This document shows positions 6,025 to 59,834 of a stretch of DNA of 64,000 nucleotides, in pieces. Position 1 is the first letter of the stretch. Every line of letters begins with the position of its first letter. The stretch is from NCBI RefSeq assembly GCF_988242995.1, contig NZ_OZ547043.1; one strand, given 5' to 3'. The notes under the pieces were generated by a model. The model had not been told where the DNA came from. It saw only the letters and a list, made by a program, of their open reading frames with translations, and searched no databases. A program made the translations under genes and the position numbers.

Positions 6025-7004
6025 AGTGTCGGCCTCCCGGCATCATCAAGTGGGTAATGGCATTTGGACTGACGCCCGTCAGAGAGCATATTCAGCGCCG
6101 GTTCTTCAGCGCGACATCTGTCAGTGGCATAGGGGCAGCGCGGGTTAAGCAGGCAGCCGTTCGGGCGGTCGTACTTACCGGGAACGACACCTGGCAACGA
6201 CGCCAGACGTTCTTTGTCCTGAGCAAATTCCGGCAGCGCACGCAGCAATGCCTGAGTATACGGGTGACGCGGCGCATGGAAGATAGCGTGCGCATCGCCC
6301 GTTTCTACTACCTGGCCTGCATACATCACGATGATTTTATGTGCCGCTTCCGCCACCAGTGCCAGGTCATGAGTGATCAACACCAGCGCCATGTTCTCTT
6401 TCTGCTGTAGCTCCAGCAGTAGTTCAATGATTTGCGCCTGAATGGTCACGTCCAGCGCAGTGGTTGGTTCATCGGCAATCAGCAGCTTTGGCCGACAGGC
6501 AATCGCCATGGCGATCATCACGCGCTGGCTCATGCCGCCGGAAAGCTGATGCGGGTAAACATCCAGACGCGATGCCGGATCGGGAATACCGACCTGATTC
6601 AGCAGGTCAATCGCTCGCTGACGGCGGGTACTTTTGTTGCCGCCCTGATGCACCTTTATCGCTTCCATAATCTGGAAACCCACGGTGTAGCACGGGTTAA
6701 GGCTGGTCATCGGGTCCTGGAAGATCATTGCCACTTCGGCACCCACCAGGTTGCGGCGCTCTTTTTCTGAGATACGCTGTAAATCCTGACCGTTAAACTC
6801 CAGCTTTTCCGCCATTACGCGGCCCGGATAATCAATCAGCCCCATAATCGCCAGCGAACTGACCGATTTACCAGAGCCGGACTCACCCACAATCCCGACC
6901 ACTTCGCCCTGTTTTACGCTGTAGCTGATGCGGTCTACGGCGCGGAACGGTGCGCTTTCGTCGCCGAAATGCACCGATAATTTATCTACATTTAATAACG
7001 CCAT
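6021..7004 (-). CDS. dppD: Dipeptide ABC transporter ATP-binding protein DppD
   Basis: 327-aa ORF with Walker A GESGSGKS and signature LSGGMSQR; stop overlaps dppF start. Confidence 0.92.
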
Positions 7005-7014
7005 CTCGAACCTC

Positions 7015-7917
7015 TTACTGCTTCAGTTTGGGATCGAGCGCGTCACGCAGACCGTCACCCATCAGGTTAAATGCCAGCACCGTCAGCAGGATCGCCAGAC
7101 CCGGGAAGGTCACGACCCACCAGGCGCTTTGCGCGAACTGCAACACATCGGAGAGCATGGTGCCCCACTCCGGCGTTGGCGGCTGCGCCCCCATGCCGAG
7201 GAAACCAAGAGCAGCCATATCGAGAATGGCGTTAGAGAAACCGAGCGACGCCTGAACAATCAGAGGCGCAAGGCAGTTCGGGAAGATGTTAATAAACATC
7301 TGACGCATCGCCCCGGCACCTGCCACGCGAGACGCGGTAACGTAATCGCGATTCACCTCCACCAGCACGGCGGCGCGTGTTAAGCGCACATAGTGCGGCA
7401 AGGCAACGAAGGTCAGCGCCAGCGCGGCGTTACCAATCGACGGGCCGAAAATCGCCACCAGCACCAGTGCCAACAGCAGACTTGGCAGCGCCAGCATGAT
7501 ATCGACCACGCGCATGATGATGTTATCGACCAGGCCGCCGAAGTAACCGGCGATCAGGCCGAGAATAACGCCCATAATCAGCGATAACACAACTACCAGA
7601 CAGCCAACCAGCAGTGACAATCGCGCACCGTACATCAGACGCGACAGCACATCACGGCCTACGTCATCGGTGCCCAGCAAGTGCGCCATGCTGCCGCCTT
7701 CCTGCCAGGCTGGCGGGGCGAGCAGTGCATCGCGGAACTGTTCCGCCGGGTTATAGGGTGCAATCCAGTTGGCAAAGATCGCGATAAACAGCACGATGAC
7801 GACGTAAACCAGCCCGACGACCGCGCCTTTGTTGCGTTTAAAATAGTGCCAGAACTCCTGTAACGGGGTCATCGGCACCGGTGCGCTAATCACTTTATTT
7901 TCAGTAACCTGTGACAT
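7015..7917 (-). CDS. dppC: Dipeptide ABC transporter permease DppC
   Basis: 300-aa polytopic permease; operon position. Confidence 0.92.
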
Positions 7918-7926
7918 GATGTCCCC

Positions 7927-8946
7927 TTACTTCTTATGACGAATACGCGGGTTCACCACGCCGTACAGCAGATCGACCAGCAAGTTGACGAGGATAATCA
8001 TCGTCGCCACCAGCAATACGCCGCCCTGCACTACCGGATAGTCGCGGCGTTGCAGTGCGTCAATCAACCAGCGCCCCAGACCGGGCCACGAGAAGATGGT
8101 TTCGGTCAGAATCGCCCCCGCCAGCAATGTTCCCACCTGGAGGCCGATAACGGTCACTACCGGCAGCATCGCGTTACGCAGCGCATGGACGATAATCACC
8201 CGCATGCGGGTCAACCCTTTGGCGCGCGCGGTGCGGATATAATCTTCACCCAGCACTTCCAGCATCGAGGAGCGTGTCATACGCACAATGACCGCCAGCG
8301 GGATAGTACCCAGCACAATGGCGGGCAAGATCATATGGGCGACGGCATCGATAAAGTTACCGTCTTCACCCCAGATGGCGGTGTCGATCAGCATAAAACC
8401 GGTTAACGGATTGGAATCATCGAGGAACACCATGTCGCTCACGCGACCGGAGACGGGCGTCAGGTTCCAGTGCACCGAAACCAGCATGATCAGCATCATG
8501 CCCCACCAGAAGATCGGCATTGAATAACCTGTCAGCGCCAGGCCAACCGCCGTGTGATCGAAAATGGAACCGCGTTTAACCGCAGCCAGCACACCAACCG
8601 GAATACCGACTGCCGTAGCAAAAATCATCGCGCAGACGCCAAGTTCCAGCGTGGCCTGAAAGCGCGGCACGAACTCTTCCCATACCGGGATGCGGCTTTT
8701 CATCGAAATGCCTAAATCGCCGTGCATTACGCCCCAAATGTAATGGAGATACTGCTGCCACATCGGTTTATCTAAGCCGAGTTCAGCCAGCAGCTGCGCG
8801 TGACGCTCTGGGGAGATCCCACGCTCGCCCGCCATGATCATCACCGGATCGCCCGGGATCATGTGGACAAAGGCAAATGTGAGAAGGGTAATACCGATAA
8901 ACGTGGGGATGACGAGTCCCAAACGTCGGAGAATAAACTGCAACAT
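7927..8946 (-). CDS. dppB: Dipeptide ABC transporter permease DppB (339 aa)
   Basis: Permease ORF; start trimmed from ORF-track 9072 to ATG (plus-strand cat 8944-8946; MLQFILRRLGLV...). Confidence 0.9.
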   Translation of the reverse strand: MLQFILRRLGLVIPTFIGITLLTFAFVHMIPGDPVMIMAGERGISPERHAQLLAELGLDKPMWQQYLHYIWGVMHGDLGISMKSRIPVWEEFVPRFQATLELGVCAMIFATAVGIPVGVLAAVKRGSIFDHTAVGLALTGYSMPIFWWGMMLIMLVSVHWNLTPVSGRVSDMVFLDDSNPLTGFMLIDTAIWGEDGNFIDAVAHMILPAIVLGTIPLAVIVRMTRSSMLEVLGEDYIRTARAKGLTRMRVIIVHALRNAMLPVVTVIGLQVGTLLAGAILTETIFSWPGLGRWLIDALQRRDYPVVQGGVLLVATMIILVNLLVDLLYGVVNPRIRHKK

Positions 8947-55378: not shown

Positions 55379-57343
55379 ATGAACATTTCGGAAGTCGATC
55401 TGCATAAACTGACGGTCAGCGATCCGTTCCTCGGTCAGTACCAACAACTGGTCCGCGATGTGGTGATTCCTTATCAGTGGGACGCCTTGAACGATCGTAT
55501 CCCAGAAGCGGAACCCAGCCATGCGATTGAAAACTTTCGCATTGCCGCAGGACTGCAAGACGGTGAATTTTACGGGATGGTGTTTCAGGACAGCGACGTC
55601 GCCAAATGGCTGGAAGCGGTAGCCTGGTCGCTGTGCCAGAAGCCGGATGCCGAACTGGAAAAAACCGCTGACGAGGTAATCGAACTGGTCGCTTCCGCCC
55701 AGTGCGAAGATGGCTATCTCAATACTTACTTTACGGTAAAAGCGCCCGAAGAACGCTGGAGCAATCTGGCGGAGTGTCATGAACTTTACTGCGCCGGTCA
55801 TCTGATTGAAGCCGGAGTCGCCTTCTTCCAGGCCACGGGCAAGCGGCGCTTGCTGGAAGTGGTTTGCCGTCTGGCCGATCATATCGACAGCGTATTTGGT
55901 CCAGGTGAAAGTAAGTTACACGGTTATCCTGGTCACCCGGAAATTGAACTGGCGCTAATGCGCCTGTATGAAGTGACCGAAGAGCCGCGCTACCTGGCGC
56001 TGACGAACTATTTTGTCGAACAGCGTGGTGCGCAACCGCACTATTACGACCAGGAATATGAAAAGCGCGGGCAGACCTCGCACTGGCACACCTACGGCCC
56101 GGCGTGGATGGTGAAAGATAAAGCCTACAGCCAGGCGCATTTGCCCATCGCACAGCAACAAACCGCCATCGGACATGCAGTACGCTTTGTATATCTGATG
56201 ACTGGCGTCGCACATCTGGCGCGTTTAAGTCACGATGAAAGCAAGCGTCAGGATTGCCTGCGGCTGTGGAACAATATGGCCCAGCGTCAGTTATATATTA
56301 CCGGCGGCATTGGCTCACAAAGCAGCGGCGAAGCGTTCAGCAGCGATTACGATCTGCCGAATGACACGGTTTACGCCGAAAGCTGTGCTTCCATCGGCCT
56401 GATGATGTTCGCCCGGCGAATGCTGGAAATGGAAGGCGACAGTCAATATGCCGATGTGATGGAGCGCGCACTGTACAACACCGTGCTCGGCGGCATGGCG
56501 CTGGATGGCAAACATTTCTTCTATGTGAATCCGCTGGAAGTACATCCAAAATCGCTGAAATTCAACCATATCTACGATCACGTTAAGCCGATCCGCCAGC
56601 GTTGGTTTGGTTGCGCTTGTTGTCCGCCAAATATCGCCCGCGTGCTGACCTCGATTGGTCATTATCTCTACACGCCGCGTGAAGATGCGTTGTATATCAA
56701 CATCTACGCAGGAAACAGCATGGAAGTGCCGGTAGAAAATGGCACGTTGCGCCTGCGGGTTAGCGGGAACTATCCGTGGCAGGAACAGGTGACAATTGCG
56801 GTTGAATCGCCCCAGCCGGTGCGTCATACGCTGGCTTTACGTCTGCCGGACTGGTGCACACAGCCGCAGATCATATTGAATGGGGAAGAGGTCGGGCAGG
56901 ATATTCGTAAAGGGTATTTGCACATTACCCGCGAATGGCAGGAGGGCGACACACTGAATCTGACTTTGCCAATGCCGGTACGTCGCGTTTACGGTAACCC
57001 TCTGGTGCGTCACGTCGCCGGAAAAGTGGCGATTCAGCGCGGCCCGCTGGTGTATTGCCTGGAACAGGCCGACAACGGCGAGTCACTGCATAACCTGTGG
57101 CTGCCTACCGATGCGCCATTTACGACCTTTGACGGCAAGGGATTGTTCCGCCATAAGATCTTAATCCAGGCACCGGGTTACCGGTATGAACAGAGCAATC
57201 CAGAGCAGCAACCGCTGTGGCATTACGACAGCGCGCCAGCCAAACGCCAGCCGCAAACCCTGACCTTTATCCCGTGGTTTAGCTGGGCCAACCGGGGTGA
57301 AGGCGAAATGCGGATCTGGGTGAATGAGGAAACCAGCGCATGA
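55379..57343 (+). CDS. Glycoside hydrolase family 127 / DUF1680 protein (beta-L-arabinofuranosidase-like), 655 aa
   Basis: Start trimmed to ATG 55379 preceded by SD aaggag; contains the Cys-rich CACCPPN motif and conserved Glu/Cys positions typical of HypBA1-type enzymes; family assignment from recalled motifs, not from a search. Confidence 0.75.
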   Translation: MNISEVDLHKLTVSDPFLGQYQQLVRDVVIPYQWDALNDRIPEAEPSHAIENFRIAAGLQDGEFYGMVFQDSDVAKWLEAVAWSLCQKPDAELEKTADEVIELVASAQCEDGYLNTYFTVKAPEERWSNLAECHELYCAGHLIEAGVAFFQATGKRRLLEVVCRLADHIDSVFGPGESKLHGYPGHPEIELALMRLYEVTEEPRYLALTNYFVEQRGAQPHYYDQEYEKRGQTSHWHTYGPAWMVKDKAYSQAHLPIAQQQTAIGHAVRFVYLMTGVAHLARLSHDESKRQDCLRLWNNMAQRQLYITGGIGSQSSGEAFSSDYDLPNDTVYAESCASIGLMMFARRMLEMEGDSQYADVMERALYNTVLGGMALDGKHFFYVNPLEVHPKSLKFNHIYDHVKPIRQRWFGCACCPPNIARVLTSIGHYLYTPREDALYINIYAGNSMEVPVENGTLRLRVSGNYPWQEQVTIAVESPQPVRHTLALRLPDWCTQPQIILNGEEVGQDIRKGYLHITREWQEGDTLNLTLPMPVRRVYGNPLVRHVAGKVAIQRGPLVYCLEQADNGESLHNLWLPTDAPFTTFDGKGLFRHKILIQAPGYRYEQSNPEQQPLWHYDSAPAKRQPQTLTFIPWFSWANRGEGEMRIWVNEETSA

Positions 57344-57345
57344 TG

Positions 57346-57380
57346 CGACGCTTAACGCGTCTTATCAGTATCAACATATC
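57346..57380. repeat. REP-like palindromic element downstream of the GH127 gene
   Basis: gatgcgacgcttaacgcgtcttatcag resembles the E. coli REP consensus. Confidence 0.6.
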
Positions 57381-57414
57381 GGTGCGGTTGCCCGCCAACC
57401 ATCGAAACGCGAGA

Positions 57415-57825
57415 TTAAACGCCCGGCAATACACGCCGGGCAGCTTCCGCCAGAAACGCACTTCTGTTGGCATAGTCTGGGTTATTGCGCACGTAGGTAT
57501 CAATCTTGTTCAGTAATCTTTTTGGCATCGTAATATTGATACGTTCAGCCCGACCTTCGAACTGATTCATATTGATATCCACCAGCAACCATTGCCCGCC
57601 AATAAAGTCCTGCGCACGCTGGACCAGATGTGTTTCCACAGAGCCTGGAAGCGGCAACTCTTCATTCATCTCGCATAAGGTTTCGAAGTGCGCGACCAGT
57701 GCACTTCGCGCATCCTGGAAAGCGTAGTCCAGCGTATCACCAGCAAAATAACAGCCTGGAACATCAGGGAAAAAACCGCTGGCACTGCCGTCAGGATCAC
57801 TGTGGATATAGGCGGGATAAAACAT
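57415..57825 (-). CDS. hicB: HicB-family antitoxin (RNase-H-like N-domain plus C-terminal ribbon-helix-helix), 136 aa
   Basis: MFYPAYIHSDPDGSASGFFPDVPGCYFAGDT... N-terminus typical of HicB/UPF0150; C-terminal RHH-like segment (INITMPKRLLNKIDTYV); 14 bp downstream of hicA. Confidence 0.8.
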   Translation of the reverse strand: MFYPAYIHSDPDGSASGFFPDVPGCYFAGDTLDYAFQDARSALVAHFETLCEMNEELPLPGSVETHLVQRAQDFIGGQWLLVDINMNQFEGRAERINITMPKRLLNKIDTYVRNNPDYANRSAFLAEAARRVLPGV

Positions 57826-57841
57826 ATTGCCTCCTGAAATT

Positions 57842-58027
57842 TTAAAATGTTAAACCAGCCTGACGCCCAATTTGCGCCAGCGTACCGGGCTTAATATCTT
57901 TTTTAGGGTGCGGAACCGTCACCAGACCCGGATGAACAGGGTGGCGGAACTGATGATGACTGCCACGGGTTCGAATATGTTCCCAGCCATGCTGCTTCAG
58001 GATGGCGATCACGTCTGCACTTTTCAC
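57842..58027 (-). CDS. hicA: HicA-family mRNA-interferase toxin (61 aa)
   Basis: MKSADVIAILKQHGWEHIRTRGSHHQFRHPVHPGLVTVPHPKKDIKPGTLAQIGRQAGLTF; matches the YcfA/HicA pattern (GSHH..F.HP...G.VTVPHP.KD...GTL..I.KQAGL). Confidence 0.85.
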   Translation of the reverse strand: MKSADVIAILKQHGWEHIRTRGSHHQFRHPVHPGLVTVPHPKKDIKPGTLAQIGRQAGLTF

Positions 58028-58239
58028 ATCCCTGCCCTTCCATGATTATACACACGATACACACACAATTAGCGATAACAATCACGATAGCGCGATTTAT
58101 ATGGGCCGTCAGGGGGATAAAGTTGACTCGCTCGGAAGGAGAATAACGGTGTGCAGTAACTTGTTGAAAAGATGCGAGGAGACTCGTAATTAAGTTCAAT
58201 CAATATTCAGTCATTCAAGACGTAGACATTTGAATTGGT

Positions 58240-58285
58240 AAAACGCGTAAGCGTCGCATCAGGCAATGAATACCCAATGCGACCA
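58240..58285. repeat. REP-like palindromic element between hicA upstream region and aldB 3' end
   Basis: gcgtaagcgtcgcatcaggcaatgaatacccaatgcgacc contains REP-type inverted repeat. Confidence 0.5.
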
Positions 58286-58295
58286 GCTTCTTATA

Positions 58296-59834
58296 TCAGA
58301 ACAGCCCCAACGGTTTATCCGAATAGCTCACCAGCAGGCACTTGGTTTGCTGGTAATGCTCAAGCATCATCTTATGGGTTTCGCGTCCGATGCCCGACTG
58401 TTTGTAGCCGCCAAACGCCGCATGTGCCGGGTAAGCGTGATAACAGTTGGTCCACACGCGCCCAGCCTGAATGCCGCGCCCCATCTTATAGGCCAGATTA
58501 CCGTTGCGGCTCCAGACACCCGCGCCCAGGCCATATTGCGTGTCGTTCGCCAGCTCCAGCGCTTCTTCCATCGTTTTGAAGGTGGTCACCGCCAGCACCG
58601 GACCAAAAATTTCTTCCTGGAACACGCGCATATTATTCTGACCAAACAGAATCGTCGGTTCGAGGTAGTAGCCGTCTTTCAGTTCGCCTTCCAGCAGCTT
58701 GCGCCGCCCGCCGGTGAGCACATCAGCGCCTTCTTTTTTACCGATATCAATGTAATTGAGGATGGTTTCCAGTTGCCCGTGCGAAACCTGCGCCCCCATT
58801 TGCGTCACGCTGTCGAGTGGGTTACCGCTACGAATGCTTTCGACACGGCGGATGGCGCGTTCCATAAAGCGTTCGTAGATAGACTCCTGCACTAAAGCAC
58901 GGCTTGGACAGGTGCAAACTTCGCCCTGGTTAAAGGCAAACAGTGCAAAGCCTTCCAGCGCTTTATCGAAAAAGGCATCTTCTTCATCCATCACATCAGC
59001 AAAGAAGATATTTGGCGATTTGCCGCCCAGCTCCAGGGTTACCGGAATAATGTTTTGCGTAGCGTATTGCATAATTTGTTGGCCCACTTCCGTTGAGCCG
59101 GTAAACGCCACTTTAGCGATGCGTTTCGAGGTCGCCAGATATTCGCCAATTTCCCCACCTGCACCGTTGACCACGTTCACCACGCCTGGCGGCAGTAAAT
59201 CACCGACGATTTCCATTAGCAGCAGTACAGAAAGCGGGGTAAGACGTGCGGGTTTCAGCACCACACAGTTGCCCGCCGCCAGCGCGGGGGCCATTTTCCA
59301 GCTCGCCATCAGCAGCGGGAAGTTCCACGGAATAATCTGCCCCACCACGCCTAACGGTTCGTGGAAGTGATAAGCCACAGTTTCGCTATCCACTTCACTA
59401 ATACCGCCTTCCTGCGCCCGAATACACGAGGCGAAATAGCGGAAATGGTCAATCGCCAGCGGCACATCGGCAGCACTGGTTTCGCGAATGGGTTTGCCGT
59501 TATCCCAGGTTTCAGCGGTCGCTAACAGTTCGAGGTTCTGCTCCATCCGATCGGCAATCTTAAACAGAATCGCCGCGCGATCCTGCACCGAGGTATGCGC
59601 CCATTTATCTTTCACTTTGTGCGCAGCATCCAGCGCCAGATCGATATCTCGTTTGCCCGAAGACGCCACTTCGCACAGCAGCTGCCCGGTCACCGGCGTC
59701 AGGTTCTGGTAATACTCGCCGTCGGCAGGGGCTACCCATTCGCCGCCAATAAAGTTGTCGTAGCGGGCTTTTAACTTGAGGGGGAAACCATACTCGCCGG
59801 GCTTAATCTGTGCTGAAGGGGGATTATTGGTCAT
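58296..59834 (-). CDS. aldB: Aldehyde dehydrogenase B (AldB), 512 aa
   Basis: Start trimmed from 59924 to ATG (plus-strand cat 59832-59834; [17 protein letters not shown]...); ALDH motifs (catalytic Cys in GQNCTCPSR-like context). Confidence 0.93.

Follow-up and report, generated by a model that had tools for sequence, protein, structure and literature searches.

The minus strand of the window (the whole stretch of DNA analyzed here, 64,000 nucleotides long) carries a pair of small genes, hicA and hicB, which in all likelihood form an intact, autoregulated type II toxin–antitoxin (TA) operon of the HicAB family, in the subclass whose antitoxin bears a ribbon-helix-helix (RHH) domain. The operon is an old resident of its chromosomal site that has repeatedly been lost (Table 1). 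Both genes are already known, being named hicA and hicB in the public E. coli RefSeq annotation; a literature search by RefSeq accession returned no work on the pair, only a single unrelated phylogeny paper. As a TA pair it adds little, the family, structures, and mechanism being established and the genes annotated, and its modest value lies in the history of the locus. Toxin–antitoxin genes are a class usually treated as mobile. A place beside the same sugar-utilization cassette, kept across many enterobacterial genera and accompanied by purifying selection, is unusual.

Table 1. Features of the hicAB locus, in window coordinates
Feature	Position	Strand	Description
Left REP, TGATGCGACGCTTAACGCGTCTTATCA	57341-57367	+	Overlaps the GH127 stop codon
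Deletion junction and last ~9 orf104 codons	57386-57418	+	Placed by alignment to EC42405 (L011)
hicB	57415-57825	-	ATG start, 136 aa; HicB antitoxin gene; RefSeq WP_000499746.1
GC-rich hairpin	57420-57442	-	9-bp stem, 5-nt loop, in the last hicB codons
hicA–hicB spacer	57826-57841	-	16 nt; holds the hicB Shine-Dalgarno sequence AGGAGG
hicA	57842-58027	-	GTG start, 61 aa; HicA toxin gene; RefSeq WP_000833473.1
GTGTGTATCGTGTGTATAAT	58045-58064	-	-10 box TATAAT (58045-58050) with an overlapping TGTGTAT repeat in tandem
GCGCTATCGTGAT	58081-58093	-	Further conserved block 30 bp upstream, akin to the operator unit
CRP-S-like palindrome	58170-58191		Core 58173-58188; TACGA-N6-TCGCA on the hicA strand
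Right REP	~58236-58266	-	Downstream of aldB; opposite orientation to the left REP; common to K-12

The HicA and HicB Proteins

An earlier reading of the window, made from the sequence only, had proposed a toxin-first HicA/HicB type II pair encoded by open reading frames of 61 and 136 aa. Both frames were found, on the minus strand, and the assignment is borne out by strong profile matches and by near-full-length alignment with solved HicA and HicB proteins. In the profile search suggested with that reading, HicA matches the Pfam family PF07927 with 82.7 bits (E = 1.9e-23), covering profile positions 2–58 of 58, and HicB matches PF15919 with 121.3 bits (E = 3.4e-35) over residues 3–129; the gathering cut-off is 27 for PF07927 and likewise 27 for PF15919, so that both scores lie far above it and HicA exceeds the curated threshold for family membership. 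No specific NCBIfam model was found for either HicA or HicB.

All residues listed as conserved in HicA (PMC3969222) are present in the window protein with identical numbering (L10, G14, W15, G22, S23, H24, P39, P41, D44, G48, I53, and A57). Gly22, Ser23, and His24 align with the same residues of Burkholderia pseudomallei HicA, in which toxicity requires Gly22 and His24 and is abolished by G22C or H24A (PMC3969222). The N-terminal (partial RNase H-like) domain of HicB is recognized by the PF15919 match and by alignment with solved HicB N-domains; it aligns with the 6G1C N-domain construct (E = 1e-12) and with K-12 HicB, and close homologs with solved structures predict that it binds HicA. In the alignments, HicB residues ~94–133 fall on the RHH domains of 6G1N and 4P78, and weak matches to the NikR RHH domain cover residues 93–132. 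By these alignments, the C-terminal domain is a ribbon-helix-helix DNA-binding domain, not a helix-turn-helix.

The two genes have the type II TA layout, adjoining on the same strand with a short spacer and the toxin first, and this order is kept in all orthologs. Judged from its domains, the pair is a HicAB toxin–antitoxin with a C-terminal RHH on the antitoxin (class 4 in Gerdes 2024). On the model of its homologs, HicA would be a small RNase of dsRBD-like fold that acts independently of the ribosome and needs His24 for toxicity, and the N-terminal domain of HicB would bind it and cover the His24 site. RHH dimers of HicB would sit on the TGTGTAT repeats over the -10 box and repress the operon; if HicB were lost or titrated, free HicA would cut mRNA and growth would stop. 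Both HicB autorepression and HicA neutralization are predictions from homology, joined in the former case by a conserved operator-like motif.

Control Signals around hicAB

Promoter elements were assigned from cross-genus conservation, not from the sigma-70 scan. The sigma-70 consensus scan found no promoter at hicAB, and no recognizable -35 element was found for the TATAAT box. The stretch at 58045–58064 is the candidate for the main promoter and HicB operator: across 16 loci, among which synonymous sites are saturated, 18 of its 20 positions are at least 80% conserved, and its conserved box, TGTGTAT-NN-TGTGTATAAT, runs over the -10 element. Direct comparison of the B. pseudomallei locus sequence places TGTGTATAATTACACA over the -10 box, and BpsHicB is reported to bind a palindrome overlapping the B. 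pseudomallei -10 element (PMC11594946). The operator motif likewise occurs in Massilia and Janthinobacterium, and its TATAATACACACA half is retained in Avibacterium.

The block at 58081–58093, conserved as GCG.TA..GTGAT, is a candidate second HicB site. A direct repeat (D4) occupies 58044–58059 and 58074–58089, and TCGTGAT adjoins the operator in B. pseudomallei and Janthinobacterium too. Alternatively, TATCGT in this block could serve as the -10 box of an upstream promoter, with CTGACG (58107–58112) as its -35; the sigma-70 scan did not recover this promoter either. The predicted HicB-binding stretch, 58040–58095, takes in the TGTGTAT repeats and the ATCGTGAT block. A 14-codon plus-strand open reading frame (58149–58193) behind GGAAGGAG was set aside; by eye, its start codon was missing from the two or three other genera inspected.

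The spacer between the genes, earlier given as 14 bp, measures 16 nt. Within it, AGGAGG (57830–57835) stands 4 nt ahead of the hicB ATG, and the CAGGAG core is kept with unchanged spacing in 14 of 16 orthologous loci; the GTG start of hicA is kept in all 17 of the 17 orthologs. A conserved weak GTG for hicA, set against an ATG with a strong AGGAGG for hicB, would favor an excess of antitoxin.

The inverted repeat previously noted over the 3′ end of hicB is present as a hairpin, followed on the minus strand by GTTTAATCT (listed also as GUUUAAUCU), and is probably an operon terminator or 3′ stabilizer. It also forms in the RNA fold and is the sole terminator-like site in the scan, a count that alone is not above chance, since the scan's shuffles average 1.3 such sites. 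A different hairpin, GCAGCAC..GTGCTGC, occupies the same codons (AARRVLPG) in 10 of 15 loci, covering most other genera, and the hicB fossil of K-12 has an 11-bp gap across the hairpin stretch. A further hairpin can form at the 3′ end of hicA, with UUUAACAUUUU after it, shortly before the hicB ribosome-binding site. An internal terminator at this point, like that of the IncI2 HicA(T)B system, was rejected as a defining feature, since the hairpin (z = -1.9) is not conserved, occurring in the predicted fold of only 5 of 16 orthologous loci. An Rfam search of 56500–59000, with E up to 1, found no RNA family.

Upstream of these elements lies a palindrome resembling a CRP-S site. Such a CRP site is taken here to span 22 bp, to carry a TGCGA core (C at position 6) in one or both half-sites, and to lie at a class I distance from a promoter; TGCGA is the CRP-S-defining core (PMC1635313). 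A TGCGA-N6-TCGCA site with at most one mismatch is found at 11 of 21 orthologous loci, versus 0.5% of shuffles. In ten of the 11 the distance to the hicA start is fixed, at -153 to -165 (the Serratia site is at -117), and information content is highest on the half-sites. The palindrome is also the outermost element common to E. coli variants with different flanks; homology with the variant carrying a nuclease gene (L007) stops at 58191. Strains of the nuclease-gene variant have the perfect allele, TGCGA, where the window has TACGA. Together with the P1 promoter of K-12 hicAB, which is CRP-S and Sxy dependent, these features raise the possibility, which we regard as tentative, that hicAB receives a second input from CRP with Sxy, tying the toxin to the starvation/competence regulon. 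The window itself argues the other way, in that its palindrome match taken alone is no better than chance and its allele has a G-to-A change at a CRP-contacted base (the one mismatch). Judged from the TATAAT box, moreover, transcription would start ~140–150 bp downstream of the palindrome center, and no promoter could be placed at class I distance from the palindrome.

A weak hairpin with a T-rich tail offers a terminator of the upstream gene as an alternative at some loci. As a terminator the palindrome was rejected, its hairpins being weak (0 to -10 kcal/mol across loci, -3.4 in the window) and compensatory changes not being seen, although at some loci it may act as one. Also rejected was a match of a conserved TGCGA-N6-TTCC block to the TGCGA/TTCCG-type site of the sxy promoter: read on a common strand, the degenerate halves of the two do not correspond.

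The wider proposal, that RHH-type hicAB is an ancient, vertically kept resident of the aldB/GH127 region with its expression tied to CRP and Sxy by a conserved CRP-S site, is on the whole unlikely. If true, its CRP/Sxy logic would be that of K-12 hicAB, of an unrelated class, and of Haemophilus influenzae toxTA, and the competence and starvation regulon would have taken up toxin-first RNase modules more than once. Should the palindrome be a CRP-S site, control by the competence regulon would extend to a second, independent hicAB.

History of the Locus and Possible Roles

REP elements had been described as bracketing the pair. Both REP-like palindromes are real, but they do not mark the ends of an inserted unit, since genomes without hicAB carry both in the same positions. 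The left REP belongs to the GH127–yiaT intergenic region in other strains and follows GH127 in O157:H7 and BL21, both without hicAB. Homology with hicAB-less genomes restarts at the right REP, after which a degenerate half runs into the aldB stop codon (58296–58298).

Window positions 57338–57386 align with sequence downstream of GH127, and from 57390 on the window aligns with EC42405 (L011) from its position 7251. Between the two sides of this junction ~3.8 kb of the L011 locus is missing, comprising yiaT, yiaU, yiaV, yiaW, and most of orf104, a convergent 104-aa gene whose stop codon overlaps that of hicB. It is because of this deletion that GH127 adjoins hicB in the window lineage, which numbers 489 genomes; the full layout, GH127-yiaTUVW-orf104-hicBA-aldB, is found in 16.

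E. coli is polymorphic at the site. The pair occurs in 505 of 5,426 complete genomes (9%), as a single chromosomal copy every time, in keeping with the strain-variable segment recognized by the sequence-only reading. About 3,800 others (~70%), K-12 among them, have only a fossil of ~84 bp from the 3′ end of hicB beside aldB. K-12 did not always lack the module, as its fossil is of this same hicB; the fossil also makes K-12 a natural empty background for a cloned operon. By comparison of the layouts, hicAB is ancestral at the aldB/GH127 site and repeatedly lost, not a recent insertion, and most strains, K-12 included, have since deleted it. Beside the GH127 gene, orthologs also occur in ten or more further genera of enterobacteria. 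No mobile copies of hicAB were found on E. coli plasmids; two "100%" matches in the plasmid collection were dismissed as 4.9-Mb chromosomes filed as plasmids, and the best true-plasmid relative of HicB is 58% identical, the best phage relative 43%.

Compared with 16 orthologs, hicA gives pN of 0.14–0.36 and pS of 0.66–0.91 (with pN no higher than 0.22 among the 15 syntenic genera), and hicB gives pN of 0.09–0.21 and pS of 0.69–0.95; on these ratios the orthologs are under purifying selection. In six E. coli loci representing all layout variants, the HicA protein sequence is the same as that encoded in the window, and the five of these that are annotated in RefSeq carry the identical HicA accession. 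Maintenance is not universal, as decayed orthologs exist: hicA is frameshifted in Escherichia sp. E1V33, carries H24P in E. chuandaensis, and is missing from an Enterobacter metagenome-assembled genome (MAG). Most E. coli do without the pair.

What selection has favored may, with considerable doubt, be abortive infection against phage, the flank of aldB forming a small defense islet; infection would deplete or titrate HicB, and free HicA would degrade RNA. HicA genes are argued to lie often in defense islands (Gerdes 2024). Among E. coli genomes, 190 carry a stand-alone HSDR_N nuclease gene, and at the three such loci inspected it adjoins hicA, with a SoFic-like Fic gene across aldB; in Trabulsiella, Enterobacter, and Lelliottia the nuclease gene adjoins hicB. 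The window, however, has neither the HSDR_N nuclease nor the Fic gene, PADLOC returned no matches for HicA and HicB, and the stable synteny across genera is at odds with the fast turnover usual for defense islands.

It is less probable that, as the sequence-only reading suggested in general terms for neighboring DNA, hicAB is kept chiefly as an addiction module, guarding the GH127 cassette from deletion. The gene order would suit such a role: hicB faces GH127, so a deletion entering there would take out the antitoxin gene first, and the common fossil, a hicB 3′ end without hicA, is what would be expected if deletions could survive only when hicA was lost with them. Besides adjoining GH127 in many genera, hicAB is accompanied by it at every hicAB-positive E. 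coli locus inspected, against 43% of genomes overall. Against this role, ~1,800 E. coli genomes have the GH127 cassette without hicAB. The full layout, furthermore, puts ~3.8 kb between hicB and GH127, and the co-occurrence may be plain clonal linkage.

That the pair is a decaying relic, its TA function gone in the source strain, is highly improbable: it has been deleted from most E. coli and its hicA is broken in some orthologs, but both reading frames are full length with catalytic and core residues intact, HicA is identical across divergent E. coli lineages with pN far below pS, and the promoter, operator, and ribosome-binding sites are conserved.

Comparison with Known Systems

By alignment, the closest solved relatives of the intact operon are B. 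pseudomallei HicAB and Yersinia pestis HicB3. The B. pseudomallei system (4C26, 6G26, 6G1N) is likewise a toxin-first operon. Its HicA (4C26/6G26) aligns 1:1 with the window protein, including G22-S23-H24 (E = 1e-16), and its HicB (6G1N) aligns over residues 2–133, including the RHH (E = 1e-24); both loci have the TGTGTATAAT motif over the -10 box and TCGTGAT upstream. The operator in B. pseudomallei is the inverted repeat TGTGTATAATTACACA, whereas the half-site stands in tandem in the window, which also has the second related block 30 bp upstream. The B. pseudomallei spacer is longer (43 versus 16 nt), and its neighbors are PAAR and VRR-NUC genes.

Y. pestis HicA3–HicB3 (4P78, 4P7D) shares the RHH-type HicB, aligned over residues 1–132 (E = 5e-21), and its two operator sites include one that covers the -10 box. 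It differs in its HicA, for which similarity is weak (E = 1e-4), and in the distance between its genes (174 bp, versus 16 nt in the window pair). The HicA(T)B system of IncI2 plasmids (PMC11878559) is also a toxin-first hicAB in E. coli, and a hairpin at the 3′ end of hicA is possible in both; in the window, however, this hairpin lies inside coding sequence and folds only marginally better than shuffles (z = -1.9), and the window pair is never plasmid-borne.

K-12 HicAB (6HPB; hicA b4532, hicB b1438) belongs to the same family and has the same gene order but occupies another chromosomal locus. The view that the two pairs are distinct holds: BLASTP found no significant similarity between the HicA proteins (E = 0.011), and the HicB proteins share 33% identity limited to the N-terminal 66 residues, with no similarity found to the helix-turn-helix part of K-12 HicB. 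This part is a class 3 domain, in contrast to the class 4 RHH of the window HicB. K-12 hicAB has two promoters and receives a CRP-S input, to which the conserved palindrome upstream of the window pair may be a parallel.

The hicAB pair and its family

All compared segments of the window, part of an E. coli chromosome, are 99.5-100% identical to isolate AF39. The toxin-antitoxin pair was read correctly from the sequence and is a previously annotated member of a well-known family (RefSeq: HicA family toxin WP_000833473.1; HicB family antitoxin WP_000499746.1). The HMM search proposed in the sequence-only reading matched the 61-aa protein to Pfam HicA_toxin (E=1.9e-23) and the 136-aa protein to HicB_lk_antitox (E=3.4e-35), both far over the curated cut-offs. 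REP-like palindromes flanking the pair (REP, repetitive extragenic palindromic element) and the inverted repeat over the 3' end of hicB were found close to the positions proposed; the spacer between the genes measures 16 nt, not 14 nt as first read, and contains AGGAGG 4 nt before the hicB ATG. To this known family our analysis adds a deletion history, a K-12 fossil, cross-genus synteny, an operator assignment and a CRP-S-like site, findings of modest interest that are easy to test.

Features of the hicAB locus and of related loci
Feature	Coordinates	Strand	Description
hicA	window 57842-58027	minus	61-aa ORF, GTG start
hicB	window 57415-57825	minus	136-aa ORF, ATG start
Candidate -10 box and predicted HicB operator	window 58045-58064	minus	GTGTGTAT-NN-TGTGTATAAT, just upstream of hicA
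Second block	window 58081-58093	minus	GCGCTATCGTGAT, related to operator, 30 bp upstream of it
CRP-S-type palindrome	window 58173-58188	plus	TGCGA-N6-TCGCA, ~150-165 nt upstream of hicA; window half-site TACGA
orf104	L011 (E. coli EC42405, full layout) 6965-7279; remnant window 57390-57418		104-aa hydrophobic ORF, convergent with hicB, stop codons overlap
Stand-alone HSDR_N nuclease gene	L007 (E. coli EC581, nuclease-gene variant) 7088-8167		359 aa, between hicA and aldB; absent from window
SoFic-like Fic gene	L007 9854-11149		431 aa, between aldB and yiaY; absent from window
hicB fossil	K-12 MG1655 NC_000913.3 ~3754720-3754822 (L010 5722-5823)		yiaW-aldB spacer; matches window 57386-57498

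Deletion history and conservation of the locus

Among 5426 complete E. coli genomes, 505 carry the hicAB core, one copy each and on the chromosome in every case, and 2314 carry the GH127 gene. Direct joining of GH127 to hicB, as in the window, occurs in 489 genomes; in the other 16 with hicAB, hicB is joined to orf104, beside yiaW. Strain EC42405 has the full order GH127, yiaT, yiaU, yiaV, yiaW, orf104, hicB, hicA, aldB. Aligned with this layout, window 57338-57386 is the REP-containing sequence normally 3' of GH127, and the window from 57390 on consists of the last orf104 codons and then hicB; ~3.8 kb is absent between these pieces, showing that yiaTUVW and most of orf104 were deleted in the window lineage. 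The pair is not an insertion between REPs; both REPs are also found at these positions in genomes without hicAB. A 60-bp deletion including one REP altered the last codons and stop of GH127 in the window (...NEETSA, 57332-57343, versus ...NEEKHCHP in yiaT+ strains, L011 3335-3395).

A Pfam search with the orf104 product gave no match. The gene has an internal deletion in K-12, and ~9 of its codons remain in the window; Pseudocitrobacter and Enterobacter sp. kpr-6 retain it beside hicB (54-58% identity).

The K-12 fossil, for which no annotation is present, comprises the orf104 end and the last 27 hicB codons, and an 11-bp gap falls within its hairpin region; it is followed by unrelated REP sequence and then by the shared REP beside aldB. 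A sensitive search of complete E. coli genomes found this stretch in 4304, of which 505 have the intact pair and ~3800 the fossil only. Identical truncation in Escherichia whittamii and an unnamed Escherichia species means that the deletion either is old or was spread by recombination. The orientation of hicB towards GH127 and the loss of hicA in every fossil would fit a locus at which only deletions that remove the toxin gene survive, although ~1800 genomes have GH127 and lack hicAB.

The only near-identical "plasmid" matches, NZ_CP134663.1 and NZ_CP141089.1, are 4.9-Mb PLSDB records that are in fact E. coli chromosomes. A 1.2-kb contig labelled MAG: Collinsella sp. (JAIJJM010000854.1) spans hicA and hicB together with the ends of aldB and GH127, with two amino-acid differences from the window in the hicA product and an identical hicB; it is almost certainly mis-binned E. 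coli DNA.

One genome was scanned for each species, and orthologues were found in Pseudocitrobacter, Pluralibacter, Trabulsiella, Citrobacter, Yokenella, Enterobacter, Lelliottia, Phytobacter and "Escherichia sp. ESNIH1", with HicB 74-86% identical to the window protein. At nearly all of these loci hicB is convergent with a GH127 gene and aldB lies within a few kb; the Yokenella gene order is exactly that of the window. In Pseudocitrobacter the yiaTUVW block sits on the opposite side of hicAB, so the two blocks have swapped places at least once. The pair is under long-lasting purifying selection: between window and orthologues pS is 0.66-0.95 (synonymous saturation) and pN 0.09-0.22 (0.36 for hicA in a non-syntenic Serratia copy), and HicA is identical across all E. 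coli layout variants examined. Some relatives show decay: hicA carries a frameshift in Escherichia sp. E1V33, HicA of E. chuandaensis has the H24P change, an Enterobacter MAG locus lacks hicA, and hicB is broken into fragments in Lelliottia nimipressuralis.

Signals for expression and control

The GTG start of hicA is kept in 17/17 orthologues and the hicB ribosome-binding site CAGGAG in 14 of 16 orthologous loci, a bias that would favour antitoxin over toxin. Just upstream of hicA, 18 of 20 positions of the candidate -10 block are conserved across genera with saturated silent sites. The -10 region of the B. pseudomallei hicAB locus is a palindrome, TGTGTATAATTACACA, with TCGTGAT just upstream, and BpsHicB is reported to bind a single palindrome overlapping its -10 (PMC11594946). 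The same motif precedes hicA in Massilia and Janthinobacterium, and the TATAATACACACA half is retained in Avibacterium. On these grounds the block is assigned by homology as the promoter -10 and predicted HicB operator. The second block may be another site for the HicB tetramer, as in Y. pestis, or could be the -10 element belonging to an upstream promoter.

A terminator scan found the hairpin over the hicB stop as the sole terminator-like site. The same codons form a different hairpin in 10 of 15 loci of other genera, which hints at selection for 3' structure. The hicA 3' end (window 57845-57895, minus strand) may form a hairpin, with UUUAACAUUUU after it and the hicB ribosome-binding site a short way downstream, an arrangement reminiscent of the internal terminator in IncI2 HicA(T)B. 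The fold beats shuffled sequences only narrowly (z=-1.9), and it is not conserved between genera.

The palindrome farther upstream offers a lead as a candidate CRP-S site. Sxy-dependent CRP sites are defined by a TGCGA core (PMC1635313), and K-12 hicAB P1 is an Sxy-dependent CRP-site (CRP-S) promoter. The palindrome is perfect in Lelliottia, Pseudocitrobacter and E. coli strains with a nuclease gene beside hicA, and has at most one mismatch in 11 of 21 loci versus 0.5% of shuffled controls; for ten of the 11 the spacing to hicA is almost constant, the Serratia site being at -117. Conservation peaks on the half-sites, and homology among E. coli flank variants stops exactly at the outer edge. 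However, the match is at chance level when the window is taken alone, its one mismatch falls on a CRP-contacted base, and the distance between palindrome and TATAAT promoter is too great for simple class I activation; no other promoter could be placed. As an RNA hairpin it is weak (-3.4 kcal/mol in the window).

On the plus strand (window 58134-58193), a strong GGAAGGAG and then GTG begin a 14-codon ORF (VCSNLLKRCEETRN) that runs divergently from hicA and overlaps the palindrome; its start codon was absent by eye in two or three other reverse-complemented genera. A second conserved block, TGCG(A/T)-N6-TTCC, lies ~105-125 nt upstream of hicA in other genera, a fixed ~48 bp from the palindrome, and is a perfect TGCGA-N6-TCGCA in Serratia silvae. 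Compared with other genera, E. coli has lost ~10 nt at this place; the window counterpart is indel-altered, ending at TTCC (58134-58137), and a further 9-bp indel at ~58128 distinguishes the window from E. coli loci L006 and L011.

Possible defence context and comparison with known HicAB systems

The HSDR_N nuclease gene is found in 190 E. coli genomes; it adjoins hicA in 3/3 loci inspected, each with a SoFic-like Fic gene on the far side of aldB, and recurs beside hicB, on the opposite side of the pair, in Trabulsiella, Enterobacter and Lelliottia. These neighbors would fit a small defence islet, although the window has neither gene.

The mechanism of the pair would follow from its family membership. 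The nearest solved HicA is that of B. pseudomallei (E=1e-16), and residue numbers correspond because the alignment has no gaps. G22C and H24A abolish toxicity of the B. pseudomallei protein (PMC3969222); window HicA keeps at equal numbers G22, H24 and the ten residues listed as conserved, L10, G14, W15, S23, P39, P41, D44, G48, I53 and A57 (PMC3969222). The nearest solved HicB proteins are those of B. pseudomallei (E=1e-24 over residues 2-133) and Y. pestis (HicB3, E=5e-21), and in both cases the alignment includes the C-terminal ribbon-helix-helix domain. In contrast, K-12 HicA has no significant similarity to window HicA, and the K-12 HicB match is confined to the N-terminal 66 residues (33% identity); in Gerdes' scheme the K-12 pair is class 3 (helix-turn-helix) and the window pair class 4 (ribbon-helix-helix) (PMC10865869). 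The sequence-only reading was therefore right to regard the window pair as distinct from that of K-12.
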